Positions 30,054 to 60,600 are shown, counted from the first letter of the stretch. The stretch: 64,000 nucleotides of DNA from Iphione sp. A-MEVVRFRX5 (GCA_976226885.1 OZ320316.1:44144001-44208000); one strand, 5' to 3'. Notes: generated by a model from the letters alone, not told the origin. A program made the numbers and translations.

Positions 30054-32917
30054 CCCTATAGCGCCGGCTTGTATCCCCAGGGATACACCGTATATGCCGG
30101 CTTGTATCCCTGGGGATACATCCGTGTGGTGCCGGGATGTATCCCTGAGGATACATACATACATTGTTTAGTATGATATAATTATTCTTAAATATACCAA
30201 CAGGTGAAGGGTTTATATTGGGAGATTATTGGAAAATATCATTTTCTATGAATATTTCTTACATTTTCGTAGTAGATAGGTCTTGAGAAGCCTAACCACA
30301 AGAGAATATTTGTAATTATTTGTTTCGTATTGGTTTGCTGGATGACTAGCAGCCGACATTGCGTGTTTTTGTGCCACAGTTCATTGAATAGGGAATCTAT
30401 CATGGAGAATGAGGACGAATTTGACTCTGATGATGGTATTAGGGTTGAAGACATGCCAGATGAATTAAATCGGATTATTGATGGACAGTCCAGCTCTGAG
30501 GATGATTCAGAAGTGACAGATGACAACAACGACAGTGAATATGAAGACGATGATGTGGCATTCACTGAGCTGCTCGCAGTTACCCAAGACCAAATAGATT
30601 ACAGTGGATGGCATACCCTGAAGGCAGGAATAGATGATCCTACACCGAACATTGTATTTGATGAAGCAGAATGTGGTGTGGCCAATGATAGTGGTTTAGA
30701 TGAAACTTCAAGTCCCCTCAGTGTATTTTCACTGTTCCTTACTGTGGATCTCCTGAACATGATTGGAAGAGGAACAAATCAACGTGGCGCTGTTGATGGA
30801 GCTACAAGTCGCACATGAAAAAGTGGGTTGAGATGACAGTAAATGAACTGAAACGTTTTCTTGGACTTGGACTACTGATGGGAATCGACAGGAAACCATC
30901 ACTAAGGAATTATTGGTCTGACTGTGTTTACCTGATGGCACCCATTTTCCCCCATGTAATGACTCGTGATCGGTTCTTGAGTATCCTCAGGTGAGATATA
31001 ATTTTTCAGCATTATATGTGTATGTAGAAATGTGAATTACATGTCACTTTATGCATTTTTTCAACAATAGTCACAAATTTCAGTGAATCTAATGTATTCA
31101 TGTCTTTCTTTTATCACTGTTTACAGACATTTGGCATTATGTGATGCAGAGAGTGTTGCAGACGGTGTACGAGCCCCATTCCACCCGTTATGGAAAATAA
31201 TGAAAATCATCGATGCCTTCAACTCTGCTGCAAAGAAATGGTATAAACCCAAACGAGAGATGTCGGTGGATGAAACTATGGTTTCATTTAAAGGAAAAAT
31301 CTACTGCAAACAGTACATGCCCAATAAGCCCCATAAATGGGGGCTTAAGATGTGGACATTGGCAGAGGCAGCTACTGGTGAGTATGAAGTAATTTATATG
31401 GTCATATTACATATGTATAAATGTGGTGTAAATCAAAAAATTACATTTTGTGTATATTTCTTCAAAATAGCTACATTTATATAAAATACTTAGAGAGATA
31501 TTCTTTTTCTGCAGGTTATGTCTCTCAGTTGTTACCCTACTATGGGAAGGAGCCTCGACATGGTCTACCCCTGGCGGAATTCGTAGTGTCAAAAATTGTT
31601 CACATGGCTGGTGTCACTGGTAAAGGAATAAGACTTTACATGGATAATTTTTTCACAACTGTTCCTCTCTTCAAAAAAATGTATGATTTAGGCATTTACT
31701 GTTGTGGCACTGTACGCAAAAATCGCCGTTTTCTCCCAAGGAATGTCATGAAGAAAAACCCAGTATGTCTTGGCAAAGCTAGGGGATCTATGAAATTTTT
31801 TCTAAGGGTGTTCTCAAACTGTTTGCATGGAGGGATAACAAAGTGGTCCATCTTTTATCTACTTGTCATGGAACTAAAATGGAAGAAACCTCTCGTGCTG
31901 GCAAAGACCCCAAGACAGGAAAGTTTAGCAAAGTAAATATTCAGTGTCCCACTGCAGTGACCCAATACTCAAAATTCATGGGTGGGGTTGACCTATTCGA
32001 CCAATACATTCAATATTATATACATAACAAGAAAACAATTCGCTGGACATTGAAAATTTTCTGGTTTCTTTTGGAATTGATGAAAGTAAATTCTTACATT
32101 ATGTACAAGTCCCTCCACCCTAACAATGCTAAAATGAGCTTTTTGGATTTTTCTTTGAAACTGATTGATGAATTGGTTGGAGGTTTGCCTGTATCGATCA
32201 TTGACAATCCAAGACAACGAGAAAAAAAATCCAGAATAACAAGATTGCATTCACGATGCATGCCAGGAACCCTCCCAAGGAAAGCTCGTTGTAAAGTCTG
32301 TTACATGAGATATTCTGCAGGGCTGGGTGTTAAGCTGGGACAAACTAAATATGGGTGCGAATCTTGTGGAGTACATCTGTGTCTCCCGACCTGTTTCACC
32401 ATATATCACACCCGGCGTGATATAATCGGATTTGACCTAGAGGAATGAGCAGCACTGAAAAAACAATGTCTGACTTGCATGTTCATAAAAAAAGATCAGA
32501 ATAAATGTATTATCAATTACCTTCAATCTCTGTGTCTTTAGTTTGTACCGTAATCCTCATATTGATATTGATCTTGAGCATCATTCGATGACTAGTGTTA
32601 ACACCGTTGGACAAAAATGTAACGTCACCATACTTTTTACGAGTATACATACCACACGTTTCCAGTTTCCTCCTAAGTAATGATTAAAAAGTCTAAAACA
32701 GACAACATAAGGCCAATGATTAATATATATTCTACGTTTCCCAATTCATTTTATTCAGCAAAACCACATATTTTCTCTTAAAATCGATGCAAATTCAGCA
32801 TGACGTGCAGGCGGCCACAAGCATGACCGCAGACTGCCCGGCGCCAACAGTGCGTCACGTCACAATAGGCCCCGGCATTAGTGTCCCGCTCTCTCACCAG
32901 GTGCAGGCGCTGTAGGG
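30054..32917 (+). mobile_element. Full-length piggyBac-like DNA transposon (2864 bp)
   Basis: TTAA at 30050-30053 and 32918-32921. TIRs CCCTATAGCGCCGGC and (reverse complement) CCCTACAGCGCCTGC. Internal transposase. Confidence 0.95.
30342..32448 (+). pseudogene. piggyBac (PGBD4-like) DDD transposase with two spliceosomal introns (30991-31126, 31378-31514) and two frameshifts (about 30810 and 31796-31801)
   Basis: Acidic N-terminus, SPLSVFSLFLT, ELKRFLGL, YWS, MTRDRFLSILR|HL, SVDETMVSFKG, YMPNKPHKWGLK, YMDNFFT, GTVRKNR, WRDNKVVHLLST, YSKFMGGVDLFDQ, and a C-terminal Cys-rich domain RCKVC...YGCESCGVHLC...CFTIYH. Both GT-AG introns keep the frame. Confidence 0.9.
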
Positions 32918-33311
32918 TTAATATGATGAGATTGATAAATGCAGACTTTTTTTAGATGAAAGGTTTGTGCAAATAGCATCACCTGCTCTAAAACCAAATG
33001 TTTATCGCTATGTTTTTTTAGCTTTTGCACGTCCAAAACGATCCACTGAGCATGGACACTCAAATAAAAGTTAATTGACTTCCTGTTTTGAAAATATGAC
33101 TCTCTGCAGTAAAAGCCTTCATTTCAATAGAAATATACGTCAAATGGCTTAAACAGATGTCTAGGAGGGTGTTAAATTTAAGTTATTCTGTTCATAATTT
33201 TGCTGGAAACGGCTTTTTTTAATAGCAATTCTTTATTAAAAAAACAAATTGACAAGCGGCTACCATTTTACATTAGTGAGTATAGAATGAAATCTGACCC
33301 CATGAACTGTG

Positions 33312-33473
33312 CAGGCCCGTAGCCAAGGGGGTATCGGGGGTATCGTCCGATACCCCACAAAAACATTAATGCTAATAAGCTTTTATAAAGGTGAAAAAAA
33401 AGATTGGTTCCACATGTAGGTTATTGGGGGCATCTTCTGATACCCCCCAGAAAATTTCCTGGCTACGGGCCTG
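33312..33473. mobile_element. 162-bp MITE with perfect 14-bp TIRs (hAT-like termini)
   Basis: CAGGCCCGTAGCCA ... TGGCTACGGGCCTG, with CTGTG directly on both flanks. Confidence 0.8.
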
Positions 33474-36400
33474 CTGTGTCGTACACATACAATGTACCAC
33501 CTCACCATTTTGGTACACAATGACAAAAAATCATTTGTGGAGTTGGTGTACAAGGTCACGTGTACCACAGTGGGTTGGAATGAATCAAAGTAGATCTGTC
33601 CCATAGTAATAATATAGATTTCGTTGCAGGAAACAAACTATTATCATACTGAAAACATTTTTTCAACTGTATACAACCAGTGCAGGTGCCAAAGGTGCTT
33701 ATCTTAATCATAGATTCAATGAACCCATCGCCAGACGTCGATATATCCAAGTACAATGCCTTTTTTTGCCTTTTGTGATGTTTTAATAGAGAGGTGTTTG
33801 TAACCGTCCAAGGAAGAGTCAATTTTGCTCCTACTCTGAAACATTATAGACATAACAACAGAACTGTTGGTCACAACGGAAGTTGTCTTTTTATGGGTGA
33901 AGTCACCCTGTCTAGTTCCTTAGTTACTTCTGTTTTGCAGTATCTGTTTCATAAATGCAGAACAACTCCGAAGTAGTCTTACATTTTAATAAAATATTTC
34001 CTTTTATCTGGGGGTAATAATACACTGACGATCACTGTTGCTTATGCATGACTGTATTAGAATTATGACTGTCACATGTCATTATGTGGTTATATAAATG
34101 TATAGACATTAAATCTCTTGAGAACATGGTGAGGCATCTACATGTATATTTATTTTCAAAGTATATGAGAAAGTGCAGTACAATGATACTGTGACTAGAA
34201 ACCTTTTTTTAAAATTTTAAACATTGTATGTTACTGTAGTGAAAGTATGACTGTCACATTGTGATGGGTGGGCATGGCAATTGACAATATAGTAATGAGT
34301 CAATTGTACACTGGTCCTTTGTATATAATGTAGACTTGTGGGTCTGCAAATAAACAAGATCCACAAACAGTCCCAGTTTCAAGTCTGTTTAATGCTGACA
34401 CAGCACTTCAATATATAGAGAATCATGGTAACATGCAGGTATAACCAATCAAAAGTAGGTATAGAATGTCTCCGATACAATGTATCACTCTTAAGTCAGA
34501 TAGAACATTATAAGCCATTCAGGAGAGGCCAGAATGCTACAATGTATCTCCTAAATTAGGTGATTTTTGGTGTTACTGATCTCTTAGAAATCTCCTAATA
34601 AGATGCACTTCCTAATATGGTAATGCAAGTGGCCACCAATGATGGCACAGCAGTTTGCACTCACTGATCCATACTATATAGTATATATGGTAGTGCCACA
34701 GGACTGCACTCACTGACCCCAGCTAGATACACATGCACTCCAGTGCTACTCCCTGCCAGTGATTGGTGTACTCAATGAAGTCAGTCCCTTTGTGTGGTAC
34801 CATGTAAGTGCACTCAGTGACCCTTGCCCTATTTCCTGCCAATAGGCAGTGTACCTAATGAATTCTCTCACGCTGGTTATCATACAGAATAGTAAATGAA
34901 CTATCATTTGCTATAAAATAACTTTCCCCCTCAGATTCTAATATTAATTCGATATGACCAAAGGATCTATGCATAGTATACAAAACATCTTATTATGAAA
35001 TAAAAGTGTTACCATGATGGGTGTTACCATTGAAGATGTGGAAATCAGACTATTTCTCTTAGCCCATTTGTCTTCCTACCATATCACCACAAAATGTGGC
35101 ATGACATGGAAACAGGTTATTGGCTCCTTGTCCACCTATTCTTTCAAATATACACCGGATGTTTGATGCCAGTGACTTCCAGGTATTTAGCGTGACTGAA
35201 AATTTGTTAAGCAGCTTGACCCAAAACCTACAACTTGATGTCACTGACTATTCAACAGGACTAACTGATGGTGTCAACTAGCGCATATAAGAAAGGCGGG
35301 AGAATTTTCAGCTATATGAAATCTAAAATTGCACACAGGGGACTACCACAGCATAATATAAATGGTATTTAAATAGACGATTGCTATGTTCCCTTCTCAT
35401 TGGAAAAAGCCATGGTCTCCAATTAAGATCCATGGTTTGTATAACCATAGCATAGTATAAATGATAGCGATACGAGACGACAATGGATTTTAATAAAATC
35501 AGGCAGGCAGGGGAACATACTATTTGGAATTGATCTCGTTCTCTCGCCCTATATACTTTTCTTTCGCTTTCTATGTACTCTTTCACTCTTTTCGTCAAGT
35601 TCTCTCCTTCTCATGCTCTTCTCTCCATATATCTCCATTTTCCCCTCCCCTCTTCTTTGCCTCAATCTCCCCTATTTCTACCAGAGTCCCTCCTTACTCA
35701 TCTCTCTCCTTTTCTTTCTCCTTGTTTGTCCCATCTCTATTACCTATCAATTATTCTCTTTTCTGCAGTGCGTTGGGACCAACCTGAATTTTCAAATTGC
35801 TCCCAGTCATGAACACTTTATAATTTACCCTTTCATTGGTTCACTGGACCTTTAGAATGTAATGAACTAGAGTGGAAGCACTTACATTAATTGACACTGA
35901 AATTGCTACCTACCGTCAGATTATGGGGCGCAATGATAGAATAGCAACTAGAGATCAAGCCGAACCTTGAACCTTTTCCTAACTCTGTGATAGATAAACA
36001 AAAATATGACTTTTCCCGGCTGAAACTGTATTATTTATGTATTAATCAGACAATAAAACATGCGAGAAGTGGCAATAATCATTGTGTGGAAATTTGCCAA
36101 AACATGTTTACAAATTTTACCCTTACAGCTAAATAGGTGGTATCTAATATTGCAGGAGCCTGACAACTTTTTCACCGATATACATAGCGTCAGCCGTCAT
36201 ATTCCTTCTATAATAGATCAAGAGAGATACGTTTTAAGCAATGTTCAGGTAGACCCTACAAAACGCCCCTCTGTCTAGAGCATGGATAAATATAGAATGA
36301 GCGAACACTTGGCCCGGCTATCTCTCGTACGTACTCTTGGCTGGCGGGGTTTTACCGTAAAGTGGCTGCTTGTGAAGTGGAAGAATAATTCCTGGATGTA

Positions 36401-42600: not shown

Positions 42601-45600
42601 CTTTTAAAATATCTAATAGCGGAATTCACTAGAAAGCATAATTAATTGATATATGCATCTGCCTACCTACACCACCCTAATGCCGTCTTCTCCCAGTGCC
42701 GTCTGGTCCAAACCTATGAGCAAGCTGTGCAAATTGTGTACACATCTTAGTACATGTATATGCAGAAATAATTTCTAATATGATATTGAAATGACCTATA
42801 TGCATATTGCATGGATTTGTGCTGGTAATAGGCAATTATTAAAGTTAAGTTTGTCACAGAGTTCTTCATGCTGTCTGCCAGTTAAGATATAACAAATGTC
42901 GAAGAAGACACATGTATATCAGGCAGTGCGACACTCGCATGAGTTCCTGGTCATAAAATTCATCAGCAATAGTAATTGTACTTGTAGAAATATTATTTTG
43001 TGAATGGACACAAGGGTCTACCATTTTGTTTGCGATGATTTGGTGAAAATGTTCAGTACACACGACAATATTACACCCCTAGCAGGTCTCAGCTCCTTTG
43101 GTGTGGCACTTATGGGTCTGATGTGTTTGTCTTGCTGCACACTATGTACAGTATTCCCTCCCATCCAGCCTTAGGAATGGTTAATGCATTGGCTTCTGGC
43201 CCAATATAGCACGCACTTACAGTACTTCGTTTACGTAGTAGAGAGCACAGTCCCTCCACAGAATTACAGTTATCACTCTTCCTGCTGTAGGTCAGGTCAT
43301 GTGACTACAAAGTCAATGAGCAATTTCCACGAAAACATGGTCAGGGTTATGTTCTCAGCGACAGCGGTTCAATCAAGCGATAGCGGTGACCAATTGGTAT
43401 TTGTTGCTTTCCTGGAACCATAATGTATAACAAGTGGTTATGTATATCATGGATATTATAGCCTATACATGTAATTTAAATCATGCCAGTGCATATTGCG
43501 TGCCTAAACGTGGTCGAACTCATCATGTCCTTTTGCTTTCCCTTATCTGAGCTGACCTGGCCACGCGATTGCACATCTCATGGTATTTCATCATGGATGC
43601 TAACCTTTCTACCTACCACATTTCTGATCCATGTTCATCCGTTTACCATTGCACAACTCATAATTTTATTCTCTCTTAGTAGTCATAGTTGGCTAGACCC
43701 GCTTGCTTTGTAAAAGTTAAACAGTTAGGTGATTACGCATCCTAAGACTCTTTTCTGCGGTATCTGCATTAAAGAATGTTCTTTAATCAATGTATGTGGA
43801 TAATTTACACCAATCCAGGAAGTTAGAAAATGTACATATATGCATGTCAGTCCCACTTGGAAACATGATGATCGTAAGTCTTGCCCAGGTGCATGCTCAT
43901 GCTAGAATCTGCCGTCGTCCCTATGCGCCACCTTTCTTTTTGCAACTGCGTCATTTAATTTGTGAATGTATCAGATGTATCTACGCTCTTATGAGCAAAG
44001 GCCACTGATCTACTCTCATTGCTATAACGCTTCTTATTATGTTCTTTTGTCGGACTCGTGCAGTCAAGATCAACTTGTGTCAGAATTCTGTCTCCCTTCA
44101 AGTGTACTTTAATGCTGCTCCTCGCATAAATCGTATTTTTACTGTTGATTTTTCTTAGGTTTCGTTCCACGCCCCTGTCGCTCATGTCAGCATTATTAGC
44201 GCAGTTGTTTCATCACCATACATGTATACTCCTACCCGCGGCTTCCATTTCCCACAGCGTAGTTTGGTCGGTCCCTGTTAGCATTGTACTGTTGCCGAGT
44301 TCAGTGTCCCATTTGTTGGGGCACTTCTCGGTAGAGGGTCGTTGGTCAGCCCAGCAGTGATAGCTGCCATTTCAGTAGAGTGGGTGGCCCCGTGTGTGGG
44401 GTTTGTGGGGCCTCTATGGTCCTGTTTTTTTGGTGTAAGAGGCATAGACACACCTTTGTTTCAAGTGGTTGCTTTGCTGTGGGGAACAAAGTCATGTTCC
44501 CTTGCTCCCAGGATGTTGCCGCCTTTCTAGGATTTTACCAAGGGGCATGCTGTGGTCCTACTTAATATTGGGGGGAGAGGAACATCTTGTTCCTGGCCCT
44601 GCTGTCATTGGTTGATTGCTTGGTGAGTGGGGTTGAGGTGGGCCACAGTGGCAAGGCCCCATCTGGCTTACATCGAGATTATTTGATAGGGTGAGGTATG
44701 AGGAGGCATTCATGTGTTCTAGGGAGTTTTATAGGAGCTTGGTTGGTTACAGGAGTATAAGGCGAATGATTATTAAGCATGTGGATGAGAAGAGATGGGA
44801 ATTGCCTGGTTTGGTGATGGTACAGGGGAGATCTTCCCGATCTCTACCCTGGTGGGTTTATTTCTAGGTGCCTCATAGGGTGGGGACGTGTCTGAACATG
44901 GGAACCCCATGTGGTTTACATCAATACTGTGGGGCGGTGTGCAGAGCATATGGCTTCCATGTGTTTTATGTAGTTTTGTTTGGGTGTTTTGTCAGAGAAA
45001 CCTCCTGCATCCATCGAGGCTTCACCTAGCTATGGGGGGCACCTGGGGAGAGCATGACAAGGCTCTCTTCACTGCCATACATGTCAATTGCTGCACGTAT
45101 GAGGTTGGGGCAGTTGGTGATGATGTAGGGCATGAGTAGATGGCACCACGGGTGCACAGTTGGTATTCTGGCAGGCTGATTGTCTGCCTGTACCCTAGTC
45201 GTAGTTGAGTGATGGTAGCCTGGAAGTCTCCAGGGAGATTCACACCTGGTGGCGAGCATGCCTTTATCAGGAGCCTATGCCACCTCCAGCTCCTTGAGGG
45301 GGAGGTATAGTTGGGCTTGTTCCTCCATTCTTCTAGGACCATCCTCTTCATCAGTTTGGTACACTGTTGAAGGGATGGGTCCATGGGCATCAGTACCTTG
45401 TCAACACTTGAGGCGAGCTTGGCTGCCCTGTCAGCAGCTATTTTGCCTGTGATACCCATGTGGGAGGGGATCCAATGGAGTATGGTCCTGGCTCTCTGTG
45501 CCTCCCATGGGAGTATGGTTTTCTGGATGGTGTGTGCAAGGGTGTTTTTACCATCCTTGTCTTGTATGGCCAGAATAGCATCGTAGGGAACTGAATGTAT

Positions 45601-48600
45601 GCAGACTGTTTCCCGGCAGTGAATGCTTAGGGCTATGTGTATAGATGCAGTTCTATGGTTAGGCAGGAGGCCTTGTTACTCACTCTAGTGTATTTTGCTA
45701 TCCAGTGGAGTAAGGCAATGCAGGCTGTGCCAGACCTTCCCATGATTGGATTGGCACTGTCATCTGTGTAGATGTCATGGGCTTCAGGGAAGAGCTCTCG
45801 TAATTCTTCCACCTCCACGAGTGCTGTGGTCTTGAGGATGAGTGGGTTGACCTCAGCTTTCTTCAACTGGGGAAGGTTGGCCATGACCTTGACAGGGATG
45901 TCTGCCCATGGTGGTAGGTTTACTGGCTGTGCCTTGGGTATCAGGCTTCACCCTATGCCTTTGGCTCTCTTCATTGCTGCTTTTGTGATGAGCAAAAGTC
46001 TAAGGGCTCTGGTGCCACTCCCCTTGAGTCGCCTCTGGAGAAGTTGTACAAAGCTTGTGTCCAACTTACATGCCATCCTGACAAGGAAGCATGAGTGATC
46101 AGTTAGGATCCTTTCCTTGATGGGTGGTAGTCCTGTCTCTGATTGGAAGTTGATGATGTGTGCATATCTTGGTGCAGTGAGGATTTTGTGAGGAGCTTCC
46201 TCTAGAGACTCTTGACAATGTGGTCAATGGCCACCCTGAGGGTGCGTTTGTCTAGGACTATCCCTAGCTATTTGCAGTTGTTGACCCACTCTATCCTATC
46301 ACCATCCAGAGTTAGCTCCCGCCCTGGTTTCACCTTAGTGGATCACTTTCATCTTCCACAGGGACACCTTCAGTTCAGGGTTCTGGCATCTGGTGAGCAC
46401 TTCCTTTAGGGCATTCGATGCTGTGCTCCAGGCATCAACTCGGTCTCTGCAGATTATTGCAAAGTCATATGTGTAAGAGAGCATGGTCGAGCCTGGGATG
46501 TCATCTGCAATGAACTGTCTCATTATGCTGTTGAATAAGAGGGTCCTGAGGACTCCTTCCTGTGGTACCCTATTCTGAAGACTGTGAGGGGTGGACATTT
46601 TTCCTTGGAAGGTGATGCCCAAGGTGTTATACCAAGCATCCAGGGTACTTACGTGGGCCACCACATGCATGCACATGACAAGGCATACAGTCTGCCTTAT
46701 GGTGTCAGTAAGGTGCTCTCGCTCTGGCTGTACATCCACAGTACTGGTAGCTGTTACTAGAAGCCACCCAAAAGTTTGCCCGGTCAGCTTTTACATGACC
46801 ATACAATGGGCCCAAAGTCTGAACCCTTTGCCTATGTCTGGGTCTTGCAGAAAGAGCTGCCTGTGCACTGTCTGAGTTGTCCCTGGCTGGGTAGTCGAGC
46901 CTGCATTGCACCCAGGGATCAGGTGTCCTGAGGTCCAGTGGTCAGCTGCCTGGGTCTCTCCAGCCACATCAGTTGACGTGGCCAGAGGGGGATCCAGCAG
47001 ATTCCCCCTCCCCTGGAAGCTGCCTCTGGGGGCTCCTGGGGGGCGGGGGTATCCTGGACACGACAGGCCGAGGACACTGGGGGATACCAACATCCATGGG
47101 CTATGCCTACATGACATGCCAGGGATGCTGGAGGGGGAGGGGTGCCATCATATATATCTTGAGGGGGGACTTCCTTTAAGTGCTGGTTGATTAATGCTCC
47201 TATCCCTGGCCAGCGACTCACTCACAACTCCCGGTGTGCTCTGCAGTCTCCCTATCAAGGCCCTCCTCTGGGTGGCCATGGGCCTTCTTCAAAAGGTCTG
47301 CGTGGACTGTGTGTCACTTCCAGCCTGTTCCAATTCAATATACCACAGCAGATAGCCCTGCCTCCACGGTCCAGGTCCCTTGCCACAAGCATTGCAACTT
47401 GGGGGAATGACCCTTCCTCTTGACAGGCAGAAACTGCCACGCTGGGTCACAGACGTTGATATCCTGTGCATGAACCTTTTGATCATACCAGTCCTTCGGA
47501 CACTCCACAAGTCATCATAACTATCGGCAGACTTTTGACACACTCAAATCTTCATACTTTTAAAGTTGTTACATTCCAGACATTTGGCATTTATCTGATT
47601 CAGTGGCATGTTAGGTATTTTACATGAAGGTAACAACTTAAGCATTAATACCAGTTTATGCTGATATAAACACCAGAACCAACTGTTATCATGCTGCCTG
47701 GTTATCCTGACTATGTCACTGCATAATACTGTAGCGTTTCGGTGTTTGGTATGAACAAAATGCGCATTGAGTGTGTTTCTCCGAAAGGGTTCTCGGAGGA
47801 TAATCCTCCGAAATAGCCACCGGTGGCGTGGGGTGGGAAGAACATTCTGGAAACTCCCCTAGGAGGGAGTACGTGTGTACTGAGCATGGCTCGGAAGGTT
47901 CTGGAAAGGATCTCTCTAGAAGGATCCAAGGTAGTATATGCTATGGAAGGTTCTAGAAGGGAACTCTCCAGAAGGATCCTATAGAGAAAGGTAGTATGTG
48001 CTGTAGAAGGTTCTAGAAGCATCCCTCCAGAAAGATCTCTGGGGGAGGGTGTTACTATTTTTAAGACTGTACCATGGCTAATTTTAGAGCCAGACTCTGT
48101 ATATAAGGGCACTGATTTCTTGAATAAAGACAGTTCTCATCCGAACTTGGAAGTGAGAGCAACAACGCATACTCTGTGTGGAAGTTCTTTATTTCACGAT
48201 AGCCATCTGGCCTGACGACGACCGACACGTTACATTTGGTGGCAGCGGTGGGATTCTCTACTCAACTTGGAAGAAAGAGAATCCCCATGGACACGAACAC
48301 GGCGTCTCCAGAGAAGGATGGCTACAGTTTATCGGAATCCGATCGAGATCACTTGCGGCCTATGCGAGAAGGAGGAAACGGTCTCCAGCGAAGACGGTGC
48401 GGCCCGGTCCGCGATTATTTATCGGCAACTGAGCGACAAGGGTCGGAGTACGAAGATTCCGACATGATGAACATGACAGAAGAAATCGCCGACGGATCCA
48501 CGAAGGATCATGAGGAAGGTAATTTGCCCAGTAGAGGGGAAGCGAGTGTTGCCGGAGGACGTGGTGAGATATCGGTAGTTGTCTGTTCTTGCTCTGAGGG

Positions 48601-51600
48601 AGAGGAACAGGAGAAGGATCAGCCACCAGGAGGAGAATCGGTTCGCGTATTCTCTCGGCAGCGGCGACCCCGAAGACTCCTTGAAATAACCTCAGGTGGT
48701 TGTGAGGAAGATAGGAAACGACCAGGCCTTGGTGAAGATAGTGGATCCAACGACGCGACTTTGCCGACAGAGTCATGCAGTCGGCGACGGTTCGACCAGG
48801 AGGTGGAACGGACAGCGAGTCAGGAGGAACCAACCTCCGAATGGGACGGGTTACTGGAGGAATTTGGCGCATTCCTCCGAAGACAGGAGAAACAGGGAAG
48901 ACGGATACCCGGACCAGGGCAGAAACCATCAATGCCCCAAAAGTATAACGAATTTCCGAAATTATCTCCTCCGACAGAAATGAAATCATCTTCTCGTTTG
49001 AAGTTGGTCAAGCCAGAGCGATATGATGGAACGTACGACTGGGAAGACTGGCATTCTCGATTCGAGGAATGGGCAAAAGTAAGTGCGTGGGATGAAGAAA
49101 CTAAGAAGAACATGTTGGTATTGTCCTTAACGGGGGCTGCACGAATATTTTATAGCAATTTAACCTCTGCAGAGACTTGTACGTATCAGCGGCGTGTTAA
49201 TGCCCTGTTTAATCGATTTGGAGAAGGCAGGGAGAAAATTCAAGCAGTTCAGAAGTTGACTACTCTTCGGAGGACTGGGAACCAAACTCCTAGGCAGCTG
49301 GCGAATGAGGTGTGCCAGCTGATGTATCAAGCGTATCCTGATGTGGACAGGGAAACGCGAGACTCTCTCTCGGTGAATTTCTTCCGGAGGGCTCTTGATG
49401 GTGAGATGAAGTTAAGGTGTGCTTGCGCAAAGATAGAAACTCTGGAGGAAGCGATACAAGTAGTAGAGATGGAGGAACGGTATACCAGTAGAGGAAAGAC
49501 TCCGACATCCTGGACAGAAGGAGGTGATGCAGACCAACTTGAGGCGGTAAGGAGAAAAGACGAGGAGAAACTGGCTTGGAGGGATGCTAGACTCTATTGG
49601 AGGGGAGCACCAGCAAGAGAAAGGGTGTTTCCGAAAAAAGGCAAGAAAGGAAGAAATGAGTCGGGAAAAATCGTGTGCTGGCATTGCGGATCGGAGGATC
49701 ATTTCAAGAGAAATTGCCCACACCTGCAGCCGAATGTCAAGCCAGCTGTAACTTTGGTAGAACTTCCGGGAAACGGGGAAGCGCCACCGGCTCTAGCTGC
49801 CAAGTGGGGACGGTGGCAGGTTCAAGTCTGTGTCTCCCTGTAAAAATTGTTGGTCAGAAGATGGATCACTTGATCGATCCGAGAGCTGAGGCAGCTGTTA
49901 CGAAGGAAGAATTCGCTCCAAGTGATACTAGTCAAACACAGTTTTCTGGTGCCACAGAACAGGTAGCTCCAACTTTGGGTCAAGGAGTCATGACATTCGA
50001 AGCAAATGGGTACAAGTACGAGATACCAATAGTTTTTGCTATCATGTGAAGTAAAAGAAGATCATCGGAAATTGAAAGGAACCACCAGGGAAAATGTCTA
50101 TGTGCAGAAAATATTCCGAAAAACAGTTTTTCCGAGAAACTCAAGAAATGCGGTGAGGAGAAGGTCGACATAGGAAGAATGTCTCATGGGTATGGCTGAC
50201 ATGCTGAAGTTTGAGAAGATTCCTTGAGGAAGAATTCGGAGAGTGGTACAACGCCTGCGCGATGCTGGGCTGAAATCCAAACTGAAGAAATGTGACCTCT
50301 TCCTGAAGCATTTCGATCTCTTAAGGCACGTTGTGACAGAAGAAGACATATGCAGAAACACTGAGAAGATTCAAATTGTTGGACATGTACTCGACTTGGG
50401 GTTATGTGTTTCCTCGAAGGGTGACACTATGGGAGAAGAATCATTGGGATAGCAGAAGACACTTGAAGAAGACGCTGGTATGAGCCTCAGAACGATGTGA
50501 CCTTGGAGGACAAGATGAGAAAAGAATTATTGACGATGCTTCCGGCGGTCGAAGAAATCTGCGACCTGCCGAGTTTTTCCAAAGAAAGAAAACTTTGAGG
50601 GCGGTTACAAGAAGCTTCCACCCGGAGGGGTGATAGAAGGTGGAGAGCACTCTTTGCATGTCGGAGCTGCAGGAGCGAATGCGGATGACAGTAGTAGTCG
50701 TCCGTGAACAGTTCGGAGAATCCGCAAAAAGACAGAGTATGGCCAAAGAGTGCGACATCGGAAAAATCCAGAAAATTGCCCTGATTTGGCTCTACGATCC
50801 CCAGTACCAACGGGTGAAAAAGGGCAAGTTAAGTTTCCTTTGGAAGAAGGTCCTCCGTCTTGTACGAACTTGATCAAAGCGGACGTGTAATGTAACATCA
50901 TGAATCAACCCTGGCGATGAAGTATTCCTTTACCGGAAGGAATAGCTGAAAGGGGGTTTTGTGATTCAGAAGCCAGAGGGACACTACAAGTAATTTGTCA
51001 AGCTGTCTCTGAGGGGAAAAACTTCCGAGAGCAATGACAAAGTGAAGCTATCGGAATAGTTCTTCAGTCATGTGGGTAGCAGAAAGGAACGATTTAATTT
51101 GTCATGGGATTAAACGGTTACCTGAAGATTTGAAGTTTGTAAGTGGGACACTACGTCAAGTCCTGCATGGATTTGGGGAAAGAAATTCTCAGCTACAGGG
51201 AATTTTGTCACATGAAGATTATGTGATCAGCGCTATACGATCAGCGAAACTTTGGAAATAAGCAATTCCGAACAATGGTCTTGTATGACTCTGGCAAACT
51301 GCAAACACCAGCAACTGCAGGAAAGGGAATTGAGCTGTCTACACCTGTAAGAAGTGACATACGAACAAGCACGGGAAAAAGGACGGTAGTGCACAAAAAC
51401 AGAATCCACCCGTACCTCGGTGGGAAATTGCCAAAATGGGTAAGAAAGGCCATGCAGAAACCCAGACAAGTCTGATCAACTTGGGTAGGCCTAGGAATGG
51501 TGAAAACTTACCTTGCGGCAGACTAAGTTATTGGTCGGGTTAGCTATTCCTTCTGGTGAAGGAATACTTTGTCCTCCGACGATAACGGAAATACAACAAG

Positions 51601-54600
51601 GAGACTTCAGAAGGGAGGGGGAGGGGTGGGCAGCATTCCGGTCACCTCTGAGTCGGAAGAGAATCAGAGAGAATGCCCACCTCTTCTCCGAAGCTAGCCA
51701 AGTAGGACCAAGCGGATGTATTGGTCTAGGCCTCCTTGATGTGTCTGTGCTTACACATGCTCAGAGCTGTTAGCAAAGAGCAGAGAAGTTATGTCTTCCT
51801 CTACATGAACTGCATCGCCAAAATCTCCCAGAGCAGCTGCTGGGGAAACCGTATAGGTGAAGATGTCGGAAGTAAAGAAGGAAATACAGGTGATAGAATA
51901 AATTTCCATTGTCAAACGGGAGTTTTGGGACCAGATCATAGGGAGTAGTGAGCAAGCAGGAACCAATGTAGCTGACAATTTATCGGAGAAGAAAGAAACA
52001 TTATGGGGAAAAATGGAATCGGAAATAGGAAAGATAATCAAAATCCATCAGTATGCGACCCTATCCTTGAGGAGGGATGGGGTGAATAGGGAGAAATTAC
52101 AAGAACAGCAAAGTAATCCTCCGAGATGAGAAGGCGGGAAATTTCGAATTGCCCGCCGCTGGATAACGCTATCCCAGAAGTGCGCTGGACCGGAACGTCA
52201 TTCTACACACAGCGTCTTCGGAGGGAAGAAGATGTCGTGGGAATGTAAGCAGTGCGTGATCCCGCCTTTTGTCAATAAGTATAACCTTCAACGACACCAG
52301 CGAGAGAAGCATCAGCAGGCCGGCATGGTGAAAATAAGATGGATGGCCTGTCCCTGGTGTCCCGGGAAGGTTTACGCATGTGATTATACGGGGTGGGAAA
52401 GTCACCTTCATAGCCAACATCGGCGAACCGCGGAACACTTCATTGGGCAGAAAGATTTGTATTACATATTTGCTGTCCGCCCAGCTAATTGGAAAATTCC
52501 AGCCGAGGAGGTCGCATCGGAGGAAGATAGAACACAGGCGCTAGAATTAATGAGATTGTGGCGACAGAGAGAGGGAGAGCCCCGCTCGATAGGCTCTTCA
52601 AGGGCAGCCAGTCGAGTGGATGACGGACAACAGCCAAGTACGTCTGCCGGGGCTACTCCGACAAGAAAGATGCCAAAGCGGGGTGTCAAGAAGACAACAG
52701 AGAAGTCAGGAACAGATAAGAAAATGAGATTGGAAAAGGAGGTGGAGCTGGTGAACCAAGGGAAGAAGGCGAAGAAAGTACAGCAACGGGACTCGGAGGG
52801 AAGATCGGAAGAAGACTTGGAAAATCAATCGGAAGAACTGACGGAGACAGGAAAGAGAGGGGAGGAACCAAAGAAAAGCCAGGAGCAAGGGTGCGAACTC
52901 GAAATAAGCGATATCAGCATGTCTTACGATACCCCATCGGTGGTTCAGGCAGCTGATCGTATTTATGAAGAACAGCATGGACGGGCTTCGCCAGCTGGGG
53001 AAACCGTGATCGGTGATAGAGAAGAGCAGGTTGAAGAAGGCATGACAGAAGAGCAAGTTAAAGAACCAAGGATAGAAAGGCAGAAAACAAGACAGCAGAA
53101 ACCATCCGTGGTAGTTCATACCGATGAAGGTATCGGAGAAGGGAGGGATGGTGAGACAGTTCCGCCTGGAGAACCTTCTCCAGCTGATGGACTTAACATA
53201 CAGGCCTCGTTGAGTGAACCCCCCATTGAAGAATTCCAGGAACCGGCGCTTCCAGGAAAGTCTCTGACAGAGACATCAACCGAAGACGTCTGGGTACCGG
53301 AGAAGTCACCACCACTCCGGAACGAAGGAAGTGCTGACAAGGGCGGGGCGACGCAACATGAGTTAGAAGATACCGCGTCTATTCCGAAGGGACCCCCTCC
53401 AGACAGGCCGGGCGAGGATCCAGTCGAGACACCTGTGAAGACGACCACGCCTCCGAGACCTGGCTCCTCTAAAACAACAGAAGCAGGGGAGGAACCGGTG
53501 TCCCTAGCATTTCGTAAATGGGTGGGAGCTACAGCAGATGGACTTGTGCGGCCCTTCTGTGGCGTCGCCCGGAGGGTGCCCACCCAACCTGTCACGACAG
53601 CGCCCAAGTGTATCTGGCCGCTGGAAGGATGGGAGAAGTTTTCAGCAGAGCAGAAATACGCTGTGTCTCTCTTGATGGCTACTGTGACTGCAATGGGTGA
53701 AGGTCCACTGGCCATCGGAGATCCCATCAAGCCGCTGAGGGATCGCCCTTGGTTATTGCTTCCTGGAGCACGCCGACCAGGGACAACTGATGCGTGGGGT
53801 CTGCCTAATGCGGAACCTAACTATGAGGTGGAACACCACAATGCCACAGTACAACACTTGATTACCTTAACAGACCAGTACGCTGACGACCCGATCACCG
53901 AAACCGAGCTAGACATCCTCCAGATGATGGTTGACGACATTGAATCTAAACAGCAAGGCTCCTTCCAGGCACAGGTCCGGAAGAATACCGATCCTCGGAT
54001 AGAAATGCTAAGCATGGACGATCTCTAAGGACATTAGAATGACTTAATTTGTTCCTTCCCCCCTGCATGATTGACAGACGTTTGAAAATGATGACCCTCC
54101 CTTGTTCTAAGAAAAGGAAAAAAAAAAAAAGGACTTATAATCTCTGTGAGGTTAAACCAAGAAAAAAATAATAAAAAGGAAAAAAATTACAAAAACCCCC
54201 TTTTAACCATGTCTTAGGTATTAAGAATGAAGGTTGAAACGAATTGCTGTCAAAAATTTTCTTGTGAATAGGTATAAGTCCAGAAATTCCGAAAGATTCT
54301 TCGGAAGAAAAGTTGGTAAGTATAGGTGAGTGAAAACCCTGTTTTCCCTCTTAAGGTGGGGGAAGTGTAGCGTTTCGGTGTTTGGTATGAACAAAATGCG
54401 CATTGAGTGTGTTTCTCCGAAAGGGTTCTCGGAGGATAATCCTCCGAAATAGCCACCGGTGGCGTGGGGTGGGAAGAACATTCTGGAAACTCCCCTAGGA
54501 GGGAGTACGTGTGTACTGAGCATGGCTCGGAAGGTTCTGGAAAGGATCTCTCTAGAAGGATCCAAGGTAGTATATGCTATGGAAGGTTCTAGAAGGGAAC

Positions 54601-57600
54601 TCTCCAGAAGGATCCTATAGAGAAAGGTAGTATGTGCTGTAGAAGGTTCTAGAAGCACCCCTCCAGAAAGATCTCTGGGGGAGGGTGTTACTATTTTTAA
54701 GACTGTACCATGGCTAATTTTAGAGCCAGACTCTGTATATAAGGGCACTGATTTCTTGAATAAAGACAGTTCTCATCCGGACTTGGAAGTGAGAGCAACA
54801 ACGCATACTCTGTGTGGAAGTTCTTTATTTCACGATAGCCATCTGGCCTGACGACGACCGACACGTTACAATACTTTGGATTATTCTGTGTATTTTATAT
54901 AAAGACAGTTTTATGCAAGTTGTCACATTTAAGCAGTGTCAGTTTTTTTTTATCTAGCTAACATATGACTGCTGCTCAAGTTAGACATGTCTAGTGACAC
55001 ACTCCTAGTGTATGTATATCTTATGGTGTCCACCACACTGTGTGATACAACTGATATGCAGCATAATTCATTTTATTACTTACTTTATTATATTCTGTTC
55101 ACCACGTTTTTCTGTTCACGTTTCTGTTCATTATCCATGAAAAACATTGTTTGTAACAACAAAGATGGTTATAAACAACCTATAAACTAAACAGACAACC
55201 TGTGTCATCATTGCCTTGGCTGTAGTCTCTGCACCCACCTCTGCCATGGGGTGGGTGCAGGGGTGGGCGCCTGTGTCCACTTGGTAAAATGGTTGGCAAT
55301 CATTATGATGTGCCACTTTCCCCCCTTGATGGCTGGGAATGGTCCACAGACATCAATGGCCACTATCTCCCAGGGGCCTGGTACCACTCCTAGCTGGAGC
55401 GGGGCCTGATATTTCCATCCTGGGTCCTGTTTCCTGCTTCTGGCAAAGGAGGCAAGCACAGTTCCACCCCTCTACATCTCTGCTCAGTCTGGGCCAGAAA
55501 AACTTGAACCAGTCGCCGTCTGGGTCGGTAGAATATTTCCATGTCATAGGTAATGGACCGCCTCCAACCAGTGAGCCAGTTGGCCGTCGGACAGATTGAA
55601 GTTACAAAGCCAGTGGAATGAACTGTGGTCCATTCAGATAACCATTCGCCGCCCTCCCATATACGTCTCGAACTTCTGCCGACCAAACACGATCACAAGC
55701 AACTCTTTCTGGATGACACAGAAGTCCCTCTCAGGTCAGGTCAGATTCCAGCTAGTACAAATTCCTGCTCATTTTGTTCCTGGGACAACACAGCGCCAAC
55801 GGTATCCAGCATCGGCGGTTGCCCGACTTGTGGGTAGGCCAGCATAGGAGCCATTGTCAAATGAGTCTACATCATGAAAAAGGCGGCCTGGCAATCTTCT
55901 TTCCATCAGAATTCTTGCCTCTTCTCCAGGAATTCATGAAGGGGGGCGGGGGCACCTGTGAAAGCTCCGGTAGTACAAGCATAACCCTATGAAACTCCGA
56001 AGTTCTGTGAAGCACCACCAGGCCAGCCACTTCTCCAGATCACCTTGGTCAACACTTGATGTTCCAGAAAGGCCACCTCCTGCCAGAAGAGTTGACATTT
56101 AGCCAGATACATCTTCAGCCCTGCTTGGCGTAACTGCCCAAACACCTCTTGTAGCCGTTTCATCATCTCAGCCACAGTCCATCGAATGACGATGATGTCG
56201 TCCAGGTACACCAAGCAGCTGGTCCCAGTGAACCACAGCCTCCATCAGGCATTAAAAGGTGCAGGGCATGTTGCAGAGCCCAAAGGGCATCACCGTGAAC
56301 TGGCAGAGCTGCCCTGGTCTTCTCCATGTCCTCTGGGTGCACGGCTACCTGCCAATATCCACTGGCTAGGTCCAACACTGAGAAACACCAGGTCCCTTTC
56401 AGCGTGTCCATGGTATCATTGATGTGGGGCAGGGGGTTCACATATTTCTTCGGCACTCGGTTCAGGGACTAGTAATCAATGCAAGAAGCACCAACTGTGG
56501 TACACACCATGACAATGGGAGAAGCTTACAGGCTGATTGAGGGCTCCAGCATCCCTTGGTCCACCATCTTCTGTGCCTCTCACTGTATGGCAGCCCTCTT
56601 CACTGGTAGATGAATCCATCCTTGTACCTGCAGTGGACTCTCATTCACGCAGAGGATCCTACCAGCTGCCGGTTTCAAATCGTGGAGGTGCAGGGCATGT
56701 GCAATGTCCGAGTGCCAACTCTCCCTCTCCAGGGTGAATTTGTCCCCCGTTGATAGTTGCAGTATGCAAAGATGCTTCTTTAGTTACATCTCAGCCATCA
56801 GCTCGACCTTGCTCCCCTCCTCTTTGGCTGTGGTCACCCGCCTACTGCGAGGGGGCAGCCACCACTTTGTTTTCCGAAGCTGCCTCCACTGGCAAAGCTT
56901 GGGGCACTCCGACCTTAAATAACCGGGATCATCATAGTTGAAGCAGTTCTTCCAAATGGTGTATTATCCCTCCTTACCACTGGTTGGTTGTGCAGTGACT
57001 AACTGCAGGGGGAGCTGTTCCATGGTCCCTGTAGCCTTGGGGGCGGGTGCTGCTGGTGATAGCATTGGCTTGTCTGGCATGTTGGCCTCCAACCGGTGTA
57101 TATTCTTCACAGGAGTGCATCCCTGCTTTACCTCCTTAGTGTGACTCAGCCATCTGGGCAGTGAACAATGTCTCAAGGAAAGTGGCCATCCGTGCTTCTT
57201 GGGTGACCCACTTCATGACCTTCTCATTCACAGAGGCCTCCACAAAATATTTGCGGCATATGCAATCCCTCCATTTGCCACTGGCCTCGGGATAAGCCAG
57301 TTGTACCAGGACTTCCACCTCATCAAGCCCCTCCTCCTTGCCTTGCTTTCTTGCCTTGAGCTGCTGCATGTTGCTGTCAGTATGGTGCTTGGATTGGAAA
57401 CGCTCAGTGAAGGCATCCACCAGGTCTTGATATGCTCCCTGTCAGGCCACATCATTGCTAGAACTACATAGCATGCTGTGAGCTGCCTTGTTCTAGGTAA
57501 TGCCTAGTTCCACCGCCTTGTCCTTCTACATCCAGTCATTTGCCATGGTGACAAGCTCGATATGTTGGAGGAAGTTTCTTAAGGGGATACTTCTTTCATA

Positions 57601-60600
57601 GGTGTTAAATCAGGCTTGCATCTTCTGGGGGGTGTCCTTGGGGTGCAGCACCATCCTCAATTCTTGTATGACAACGGGGCCATACCATTTTCCTTTTCCT
57701 GCTCTTCCAGAATGTCATTGCTGACCTCCAGGTCCACTTCTGTGCTATGCTCTTCCTTTTCAACTTCAGCGGCTCTACTGGTCCAGGCCCCTTATCTGAT
57801 CTGCTTAGGGGTGGACTCTTATCTCTGGCTCACTCTGCCAGGACCTGACTGTCCGCTTTGGCGTTTTCTTGTTTCTAAACATCGGATGAGACAGCGGCTT
57901 GGAACATGTAGGATCTGCTCTTGATTTGACATTGTTGACTCACTGAATCTGGGAGGCGGCGTCAGTTAGCCTTAAACTAGCCAGGTGCCCGGCTGCCAAG
58001 TAGAATCCGAGTTCGTTAAAAGAATTGGTGGATTATTGATGAAAAATCAAGCATTGTACAATTCCACCCCTAAATGAAACGCATTATATACAGCTTATAT
58101 TCCATTGATCTCGTCCCCTCTCTCCCTGAAGAATGCTATCCCAGCTCTTTTCACCTCAAGTAGCACGTATGTCGCTTTCTACACTATAGAGATCACATTT
58201 GACAGAAGCACGAGGTCTATCCTATTAGAATGGAATATACTCTTTTTAATTGTGAAAAGCATCGCACTTACGACACTGGACAGAACTAGTTATTTATGTG
58301 GTTACAAACAGGTTTAGAAATAAAGCAATATATTCCATAGATCAATTTTTCACACAGGATTCTGATGCCTTATATATTCTATGAAATTCCTTTGCACATG
58401 CGTTCATGTGGCTCTCACTGGCATTCTCTTTATTGACAACCCTAGGGTATCTGAAATACCTTCATCACCCGGCATATCGAGTGGTGGCTATTCATGTCCC
58501 GGAGGGCTTTAACATGGATAAGGCACGTAAGTAAATATTACTGGACATCAATGCACGCATGTTGTAGATACTGTAGTTGGATGTTCTGAACTGACCAAAT
58601 GTCTTTGTACTTCATAAATGCTATAGTAATTAAACACAAACATCCTATAAGACTAATGTACCATTCACTAAGTTGTCAGACACCCAACTTCAATGCAGTG
58701 TTTGTTTGCCTTTTGTTACATCATAATAGACATTCCACAAATCAGGCCACATCCTTTTTTATCATAGAACAAAATTACAAAATTGTTTTGTAACAGTTTT
58801 CTTTTAACCATTTGGCGATGGGCTACTTGTCTGCTTCACAACGTGTTTCATGTTCCAAAATGCTGCAACCTCCTAAATGGAACTGTTCTACAATGGTTCT
58901 ACATGTGTCTTGCAGAAAAGGAGATCGCCAAAGGAGGTCAGATGAAACAGTCGCTAGAAAGGCAGTACTCGAAGATTACAGAACTAGAAGAACGTTATCA
59001 GCACAAGATGCATGCTGCTGGGGTTAGTGCCTAAAAGGACATTAAAGAATGGCAAATGACAAAATAGCGTATCGACAAAATGGCAATCATATAGCGCAAT
59101 AAATCCCTTTTTACCTGCTATAAATAATATACGTCAGCCTGTTTGGCAAGTCAATGTCTTAGGAAAAAATCCTTTCCCTAGACCTCCTTCTTACTCATGC
59201 ATTTCTACGCATTCTCAACCTGTCTAATTAAAACACAATTCAAGAAGGACTTTGGCTGGCGGTAGTACACTCACCCGGTTCAATTACATGGAATCGTTTC
59301 CAAGGCAAATGTTTTATCAGACGAAGCGGAGCCACTTACAAACATACAAGCAATGAATGAGACCGTATTGGGTGAATGGTACCGGACATTAAAACTGGAC
59401 AAGGTAGACCTATTGAGAAAGTTCCCTGAAATAGCACAGGGTGATTTAAGTCAGTTCAATCGACCTCTTGTTGGGAGGTCGTGATACGTTCAACTTCACT
59501 GGTCTTTGATTGTTGACATCAGTAAGGGAATGCATAACTGTAATGAGTGCATTTGGTTTAGTGGCATCAGCATTCAAAGACACGTAAATGTGGGCAATAT
59601 CCAAGCCTCTAGATAAGTGATAGGTTTAGGTGGCTCCACAGGGAGGTATTCATCACTATTATAAAGAAAGAGACAAAAAGAGGACACAAAAATACATTTT
59701 GCGGGTGTACAGAATTAAAACGAATGTGGAAGAGGCAGAGAGAAAATTAGGGTTAAAAGAGTGAGACGGAACAAGAGGGCAAGAAAGTGTGTGATAGGTA
59801 TATACACATAGAGAGAGAAAATGTAGAAGAGATAATTGGAGAAAAATGAAGAAAAACAGGAGAAAGAGAATGATAGAGACAGACAAGAGAAATAAAGAGA
59901 CGAAAATGTTGTCAGACAGAAAAGGGAAGGAAAAGACAAACAAGGCATGCCTGTGATTAGGAGGAACATAATCAGGGCTTCAATCACAACTTTGAAGGAA
60001 AATTTAACATTGTTCTGAGGGAGAGGTAAGGTTCTGACTGGACGGCGCAGAGCGAGAAACAGGGTGTACATTATCCACAAGATACGACTTAGAATGCTCA
60101 ACATTACTGTGCCGTTTTGTCACCAAATTCTTAGTTACCATCCTGCTCCGGATGTTCTCAATACAGATATTCTCATCAACCAAGCTGATGTTTTAGCCCG
60201 GTTACCAACTGCTTATTATTCTATATAAACAATTGTAGGAACAACAATATAAATTACCCACGTAGTAAATCCCGTCGATTTTGATTGAAATAACAATACT
60301 GTAACAAAGACACTTCCTCTGATATGGTTCAGTCTGAGCTCTGGAGCTTTTTACTTTCGAGGTGGTCTCAACAGCATTTCTGGTAAAAGTGCATAAGTAC
60401 ATTGTAAAGAATAGCACATTAATTATTATATATGTTGAGTAATGTTTCACCGACCCTACATTTTTCCAGCCTGTTACAGGAATCACAGATATTGTTTAGT
60501 ACTTATTTCCTGTCAATCTTAATGGGATACGAGCAGTACACTGAAACCGATAACGGGTATGAATGTTTCATCGAGAATCCCAGCCTACGCTTCCATGTTC

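Follow-up and report, generated by a model that had tools for sequence, protein, structure and literature searches.

A zinc-finger open reading frame retained together with gag in a young Gypsy element without a functional pol

Cer1, a Gypsy/Ty3 element of C. elegans, carries in its env slot a non-env open reading frame (ORF) that encodes part of CERV, a 517-aa nuclear protein which is needed for export of the genomic RNA and not for its transcription, and which has a nuclear localisation signal (NLS), a nuclear export signal (NES) and a possible zinc finger (PMC10309623). According to the same source, most ORFs in the env slot have no known function, and CERV is the one animal Gypsy non-env accessory protein with a worked-out function that we found in the literature surveyed. 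Here we analyse a 64,000-nucleotide stretch from Iphione sp. A-MEVVRFRX5 (GCA_976226885.1 OZ320316.1:44144001-44208000), termed the window. Positions are counted from its first letter and features lie on the plus strand unless stated otherwise. A Ty3/Gypsy element bounded by long terminal repeats (LTRs), at 47730-54870, holds an intact accessory gene, ORF3 (52232..54028), between the debris of pol and the polypurine tract (PPT). Judged from its sequence, ORF3 probably encodes a nuclear, nucleic-acid-binding regulator that raises the output of the element's full-length RNA.

Several other elements encode regulators of their own expression at the 3′ end, namely Tas/Bel1 of foamy viruses, Tax/Rex of HTLV, Tat/Rev of HIV and VANC of Arabidopsis; these elements and folds are unrelated to ORF3 and provide an analogy only. 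TR-GAG and zebrafish BHIKHARI keep gag, lack reverse transcriptase (RT) and integrase, and have an autonomous partner. In wheat, RLG_Sabrina_SA and RLG_WHAM have also kept gag and lost RT and integrase, and are replicated by an autonomous partner (PMC9744471). Whereas semi-autonomous families of this type keep Gag or Gag-protease, the element described here has an altered protease motif, a long stretch of pol debris and an extra zinc-finger ORF. ORF3 resembles CERV in that a non-env ORF of nuclear type occupies the env slot of a Gypsy element in an animal. However, CERV shares its N-terminal exons with gag and contains a C4-type loop, a leucine zipper and a GTPase-mimic domain (PMC10309623), whereas ORF3 has its own ATG, two C2H2-like fingers and a pol-less element around it, and no similarity of sequence or fold between the two was detected. 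The additional ORFs of the plant elements Retand and Grande encode nuclear or DNA-binding products, and those of Retand, Grande and RIRE2 are antisense, plant-specific and of the TRP28 family, PF04195 (PMC11963269; PMC7264820). ORF3, in contrast, lies in sense and has no PF04195 match, and the word "zinc" is absent from the available text of PMC11963269. LTRs with heat-shock elements (HSEs), in the form of nGAAnnTTCnnGAAn upstream of the TATA box at 1-4 per LTR, are described for Mag, CsRN1 and Gmr1 elements of Macrostomum and for plant ONSEN (PMC12801592); the ORF3 element has four. That paper, in the text available, mentions no accessory ORF ("ORF" has 0 occurrences), and for the ORF3 element a heat response is predicted only. 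There are published precedents for each ingredient, be it a non-env accessory ORF, a pol-less element that keeps gag or an LTR with heat-shock elements. The tests run place ORF3 outside CERV, TRP28 and Env, and full-text literature searches, which do not cover subscription journals and Repbase reports, gave no Gypsy accessory ORF with paired C2H2 fingers.

ORF3 runs from ATG to TAA over 1797 nt (598 aa) with zero internal stops, inside a stop-to-stop frame that begins at 52130; the other two plus frames across it contain 29 and 34 stops per 598 codons. In order-3 Markov simulations 0 of 300 sequences reached 632 codons under each of two trainings (maxima 451 and 390), and codon-position bias is strong (chi-square p = 5e-12, compared with p = 0.48 for the pol debris, where periodicity is gone). 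A chance ORF is ruled out by these simulations, the stop counts in the other frames, the periodicity and the finger-motif shuffles given below. An initial annotation of this DNA had placed an intact 598-aa double-finger ORF between pol debris and PPT, and the coordinates, the frame and the PPT at 54353..54365 all agree with it. The third codon positions of ORF3 (A.29, C.18, G.33, T.20) are close to those of gag (.30,.16,.33,.22), which fits long residence of ORF3 in the element, and purine skew and overall base composition match gag as well; a Penelope-like ORF elsewhere in the window, with third-position C of.40, is unlike ORF3.

The element is young. Its two 505-bp LTRs (TGT...ACA; 47730..48234 and 54366..54870), recognised by local alignment, are 99.6% identical by blastn, with 2 mismatches in 505, both transitions. 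This amounts to a divergence of 0.4% (95% confidence interval 0.05-1.4%), or 0.2% per copy. The element has ATAC as its target-site duplication (TSD) on both sides (47726..47729 and 54871..54874), a primer-binding site (PBS) of tRNA-Leu type lies at 48237..48254, and the PPT directly adjoins the 3′ LTR, so that the features of Gypsy membership, namely TG...CA LTR ends, a 4-6 bp TSD, PBS and PPT, are present. The PBS 12-mer is of Leu class in supplement rows of PMC13524379 and has 0 matches in the supplements of PMC12801592, where the sequence files in the zip archive are perhaps not all text. Because the LTRs differ at only 2 of 505 positions and the TSD is intact, the insertion is recent, despite its dead pol. 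The window holds a single copy of the element (blastn).

Upstream of ORF3, gag is intact (48287..49843, 518 aa), with a disordered N-terminus, a Ty3-like capsid, one CCHC knuckle and codon-position periodicity of p 7e-5. Its zf-CCHC match exceeds the Pfam cut-off (E 7.6e-5), the capsid matches are weak and under cut-off (Ty3_capsid E 0.0099, Retrotrans_gag E 0.011), and it aligns to the gag of an older neighbouring Gypsy element at 27% over 102 aa. A GGGAAAC heptamer at 49768..49774 in the gag-pol overlap is a candidate -1 frameshift site by motif scan, and the hairpin after it is not above shuffles (z -0.95). Past this slippery site the -1 frame is open for ~90 codons over a protease-like stretch (49775..50049), although the catalytic motif is altered and non-canonical; Pfam gives no match here, and we take the stretch to be a protease remnant from its motif.

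Between gag and ORF3 little of pol can be recognised. The debris (50050..51700) contains 19-26 stops per ~550 codons in every frame, no YxDD motif was recognised in it, neither RNase H nor an integrase core was matched, and Pfam and PDB searches of it were without match. One piece, at 50192-50359, is the C-terminal part of RT by alignment to the RT of the older neighbouring Gypsy element (37.5% across 56 aa, with E 8e-5; the window scores 78, and the best of 150 shuffles scores 47). Pieces at ~50770-51450, like the protease remnant, were identified from motifs and are probably integrase GPY/F; the integrase C-terminal remnants score 41-43, inside the shuffle range, and the protease remnant likewise does not exceed its shuffles. 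Of the Gypsy pol order (protease, RT, RNase H, integrase), statistical support attaches to the RT piece only, the protease before it and GPY/F after it being placed by motifs, and the term "pol debris" of the initial annotation holds by alignment for RT and by motif for the remainder. The debris also contains a 28-nt inverted repeat (93%; 50920-50947 and 51542-51569), each arm of which is near-palindromic, and which may have been left by a rearrangement or kept as an RNA signal. Moreover, ~90 codons at 51857-52129, in the frame of ORF3 and with one internal stop and a second at the end, share the GAAGATGTCG start context with ORF3 and are perhaps a decayed small ORF; the lack of periodicity over 51700-52231 (p 0.40) weighs against this.

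Decay of pol in situ is excluded by the 99.6% LTR identity, as the age this implies allows only ~4 changes in pol. The pol region is instead shortened, rearranged and randomised, and it is more decayed than that of the older surrounding Gypsy element, whose RT, RNase H and integrase zinc domain are still detectable by Pfam. Since the younger insertion has the more ruined pol, pol must have been lost in earlier rounds of replication in trans, and the element represents a young insertion from a Gypsy lineage that lacks pol and has kept gag and ORF3. Decay does not extend into the genes on either side: gag remains open up to 49843, and the frame of ORF3 is open from 52130 onwards. The openness of ORF3 at this site proves nothing alone, because in neutral simulation at 0.2% per copy it stayed open in 841 of 1000 runs; in substitution-only simulation, with indels left uncounted, it survived 5% divergence in 19 of 1000 runs and 10% in 0 of 1000. 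Selection is indicated rather by the contrast between two intact genes, gag and ORF3, and the effectively randomised sequence that separates them. The earlier statement that ORF3 stayed open while adjacent pol decayed is therefore true of the lineage and not of this copy, and its description as a selected gene with the anatomy of a nuclear protein is supported. A pol-less lineage is in effect a natural deletion experiment that reveals which genes an element must carry itself, here gag and a zinc-finger protein.

The youth of the copy also leaves room for a different account, in which ORF3 was copied in recently, by template switching from an autonomous relative or by capture of a host or transposon gene, and is under no selection. 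The 84% neutral survival is compatible with this, as are A-rich runs past the stop (~54110-54200), such as a retrocopied mRNA might leave. However, two switches would be required that coincide with the end of gag and the start of ORF3, base composition and purine skew match gag, and no host protein matches ORF3 in Pfam, the PDB or 1.84 billion representative sequences. Even then ORF3 would still be functional in the donor element. We regard this account as quite unlikely. The A-rich runs stand in their own right between the ORF3 stop and the PPT.

In the ORF3 protein, two C2H2-like fingers occupy residues 5-27 and 40-63 (52244..52420), with the forms C5-x2-C8-x13-H22-x4-H27 and C40-x2-C43-x14-H58-x4-H63; shuffling produced a pair of motifs of this kind in 0 of 20000 trials on the whole protein and in 1 of 20000 on residues 1-120. 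The C2H2 consensus is C-x2,4-C...F-x5-L-x2-H-x3,5-H, and classical tandem fingers are joined by a TGEKP-type linker. Finger 1 has the classical F-x5-L-x2-H core and finger 2 is atypical. In Pfam, residues 3-27 match zf-C2H2_4 (E 0.00019, 22.3 bits, under the curated cut-off of 27) and residues 36-74 match Zn_SUZ12 below threshold (E 0.0063), and zf-BED is absent from the 6 families found at E <= 10 for residues 1-117. Basic patches at residues 149-182 (52676..52777) form a predicted bipartite-NLS-like signal by regular expression, KRGVKK..KKMR at 149-166 and KKMR..KKAKK at 163-182. They are followed by an acidic, Pro-rich linker at residues ~201-423 (52832..53500) that is probably disordered by composition and AlphaFold (residues 201-430: net charge -25, 16.5% E, 11.7% P). 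The C-terminal hydrophobic, helical domain (residues ~424-598; 53501..54025), delimited by composition and low-confidence helices, is closed by an acidic amphipathic segment at 541-570 (net -8, 12 of 30 residues hydrophobic). NES class-3-like patterns are predicted at 478-488 and 560-570. Finger spacing, basic patch, acidic/Pro linker and hydrophobic C-terminal block are all as the initial annotation described them. Single-sequence AlphaFold models reached a mean pLDDT of 39.9 for the full protein and 40.4 for the C-terminal 182 aa, with low-confidence helices after the fingers and at residues 423-585 and nothing structured between, and the 0 of 29 Foldseek matches at E <= 0.001 are meaningless at such pLDDT. 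Profile comparison thus returned zinc-finger matches, albeit below threshold, whilst structure prediction was uninformative. PxDLS, LxCxE, LxxLL and SUMO consensus sites were not found in ORF3, and one loose PxVxL-like and one SIM-like match were. A zinc module, an NLS-like patch, acidic disorder and a terminal acidic helix make up the usual layout of a DNA-binding activator, and by this anatomy ORF3 is supported as a gene for a nuclear-type protein.

The position of ORF3 on the sense strand between pol and PPT is that of env, and a divergent Env or fusogen would find some favour in a mildly hydrophobic stretch at 477-495, which gives the top 19-residue Kyte-Doolittle window (1.43), and in two N-x-S/T sequons. 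The usual threshold for a transmembrane helix on this scale is ~1.6. Env proteins of the errantivirus F-type, gB-type and Tor kinds are marked by a signal peptide, a furin site, a transmembrane anchor and a Cys-rich ectodomain. Hydropathy and motif scans found no signal-peptide-like N-terminus (best N-terminal 9-mer 0.89), no furin-type RxK/RR site and no convincing transmembrane helix; 5 of the 8 Cys lie in the finger region, and no Env family of Pfam matches. An Env is thus very improbable, and the initial annotation was right to see neither a signal peptide nor a transmembrane helix and to set Env aside.

How ORF3 acts is the more difficult question. We tentatively favour action at DNA, by activation or anti-silencing of the LTR together with heat-shock factor (HSF), and assign this reading a probability of roughly 0.4, above that of an RNA exporter discussed below; the transactivator or anti-silencing factor suggested by the initial annotation is plausible on this view. 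We infer the expression route, nuclear location, binding target and activation by ORF3 as follows. In an invertebrate genome, the semi-autonomous Gypsy lineage would be transcribed from an HSF-responsive LTR and make its own Gag, and an autonomous relative would lend it protease, RT, RNase H and integrase. A subgenomic RNA, either spliced or begun at an internal start, would give rise to ORF3, and the basic patch would take the protein into the nucleus, where the paired fingers would bind the element's own nucleic acid, most likely LTR DNA. The acidic linker and the C-terminal acidic-hydrophobic helix could then recruit co-activators or counter silencing, and the outcome would be extra full-length RNA for packaging by Gag. 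A role as a nuclear factor for full-length RNA output is suggested by the anatomy of ORF3 combined with its retention alongside gag; for the DNA model in particular we counted the Pfam match of finger 1 to classical C2H2 and the C2H2 families among the Atlas neighbours of residues 1-120.

The promoter on which ORF3 might act is probably of the heat-shock type. The 5′ LTR contains four perfect HSEs (GAAnnTTCnnGAA at 47840, 47894, 47946 and 48006; 47840..48018), partly within 52-60 bp repeats of U3, and the same four recur in the 3′ LTR (54476-54654). They lie 80-260 bp upstream of a TATA-like box at 48100, followed by AATAAA at 48123 (48100..48128), for both of which the function is predicted from the motif scan. 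All 8 of the 8 GAAnnTTCnnGAA matches in the window fall within the two LTRs, four per LTR, compared with 0.83 expected, and none of 100 shuffles had as many; since the LTRs are copies of each other and 3 of the 4 elements sit in U3 repeats, fewer than 8 of these matches count as independent. In Macrostomum, heat induction through HSEs in Gypsy LTRs reaches ~250-fold and was shown to depend on these elements, and 2 of 6 HSE-bearing families lacked it (PMC12801592). On account of these two families the motifs alone are insufficient as proof of induction; from the motifs, the LTR of the ORF3 element is probably a heat-shock-type, HSF-responsive promoter. The initial annotation had correctly described a Gypsy element with ORF3 and a dead pol, but overlooked the HSE array and the intact gag.

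An alternative with a direct precedent is that ORF3 is a Rev- or CERV-like exporter, whose zinc module would bind unspliced genomic RNA and couple it to nuclear export, a step needed before Gag can be made. Cer1 CERV is itself encoded in part by a non-env ORF in the env slot and is needed for export (PMC10309623). ORF3 has both an NLS-like patch and NES-like patterns, a spliced ORF3 RNA would imply a route of export for the unspliced RNA, and HSF can provide the transcriptional drive. However, the C4 loop, leucine zipper, M ring and G-like domain of CERV are not seen in ORF3 (there is no C4 Cys cluster outside its fingers), no Pfam, PDB or fold match links the two, the fold comparison being made at low pLDDT, and NES-like patterns are common in amphipathic helices. 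Moreover, none of five donor candidates gives an in-phase gag-ORF3 splice, and finger 1 resembles a DNA-reading C2H2 finger. We consider an exporter possible but doubtful.

Several points weigh against action at the LTR. Only one finger is canonical, the 12-residue linker between the fingers (residues 28-39) is not of the DNA-docking TGEKP type, both Pfam finger matches fall under curated cut-offs and the AlphaFold models are of low confidence (pLDDT ~40), and from sequence RNA or protein binding by the fingers is equally possible as DNA binding. The codon-usage (relative synonymous codon usage) correlation between ORF3 and gag, 0.30, is no better than that between ORF3 and a piggyBac-like ORF (0.29). 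As to expression, the ORF3 ATG at 52232 is the first one downstream of a candidate acceptor, rich in pyrimidines, whose end is at 52212, but 0 of 5 weak gag donor candidates are in phase with the acceptor near ORF3, and a strong splice donor was not found in the leader. In Tor elements the ORF in the env slot is served by splicing or an internal promoter (PMC4402516). Selection on ORF3 is read from one copy, and the apparent retention could also result if the element had recently recombined with an intact helper. Four HSEs per LTR reduce the need for a self-encoded activator, and a diffusible activator could be obtained from a helper just as Pol is; because of the latter, retention of ORF3 needs an extra reason, such as cis preference, a scarce helper or dosage.

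The keeping of gag and ORF3 together in cis, with the enzymes borrowed, would be explained if ORF3 co-assembled with Gag and travelled with the cDNA, providing nuclear import, chromatin tethering or antagonism of a restriction factor for the borrowed integrase. The strong basic NLS-like patch and zinc module would suit such a packaged protein. Binding to Gag is, however, purely postulated, the long acidic linker and activator-like C-terminal helix would be superfluous, and the insertion site, of which there is one example, is without an obvious targeting signal. We give this scenario a low standing, if anything slightly below that of recent copying-in.

Returning to LTR activation or anti-silencing, an extended version would have HSF set off transcription through the four HSEs, with ORF3 going on to sustain or shield it, as a positive-feedback switch resembling Tas or VANC that was kept by a pol-less lineage and possibly traded to the helper for Pol. 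That ORF3 should thereby found a new animal Gypsy accessory family, a zinc-finger transactivator or anti-silencer locking in a heat-shock burst, we think unlikely. Should ORF3 prove to activate, or to counteract silencing, in a sequence-specific way, animal retrotransposons would have in it their counterpart of VANC or Tas, and it would bear on stress-driven transposition in invertebrates.

Lastly, we searched for relatives of ORF3. A phmmer search of the 1.84 billion representatives gave 0 matches at E <= 0.001, and an exact look-up found it absent. Word-indexed searches, which covered proteins of 328-1047 aa, gave 0 of 7998 candidates at E <= 0.001 for the full length and 0 of 348 at E <= 10 for residues 420-598. 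The full length matched no PDB sequence, and residues 1-117 returned one spurious EGFR match. PHROGs gave two weak N-terminal matches only (E 0.18 and 0.38), and 71 pattern stretches in bacterial and archaeal genome contigs included 0 that were confirmed. Rfam gave 2 matches, both far under the gathering score. In the Atlas, residues 1-120 had 30 feature neighbours, with unnamed proteins at the top (0.94) and C2H2 families among them, though scores of 0.9 occur for 4-10 of 100 shuffles and are uncalibrated for parts of proteins; the C-terminal domain had no usable match. As a control, gag yielded 0 of 824 candidates (proteins of 908-2590 aa only), was absent on exact look-up and left 40 stretches unconfirmed. 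Because this control was blank too, the blanks for ORF3 are weak evidence of novelty, and eukaryotic transposon proteins seem poorly covered by the databases searched. Gypsy families of marine invertebrates in repeat libraries often have an unexplained third ORF, and relatives of ORF3 may exist there.

The young element sits in an AT-rich patch that splits the older, decayed Gypsy element into two collinear pieces on the minus strand (55200-57900 and ~47200-47550). Gag, RT, RNase H and integrase zinc domains are recognised in this older element by Pfam and most of the integrase core is seemingly absent; the left-hand piece (~47200-47550) is presumed to belong to it from a motif only. Elsewhere in the window, a decayed non-LTR-like RT (RVT_1 E 0.0007) followed by an RNase H-like stretch occupies 45022-46790 on the minus strand, and several open pieces at 30276-32448 are presumably a piggyBac-like transposase, judging by motifs. 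A 505-codon open frame at 22897-24414, with a related copy near 1-1475 and no Pfam family at E <= 0.01, we take by its motifs to encode a Penelope-like RT with GIY-YIG. Exons with SH3 and SPIN90_LRD domains at ~12354-18475 on the minus strand are probably those of an NCKIPSD/SPIN90 orthologue and mark the host as an animal, with repeat content and composition suggesting an invertebrate, and 30-nt inverted arms 104 nt apart at 33311-33474 possibly mark a small miniature inverted-repeat transposable element.

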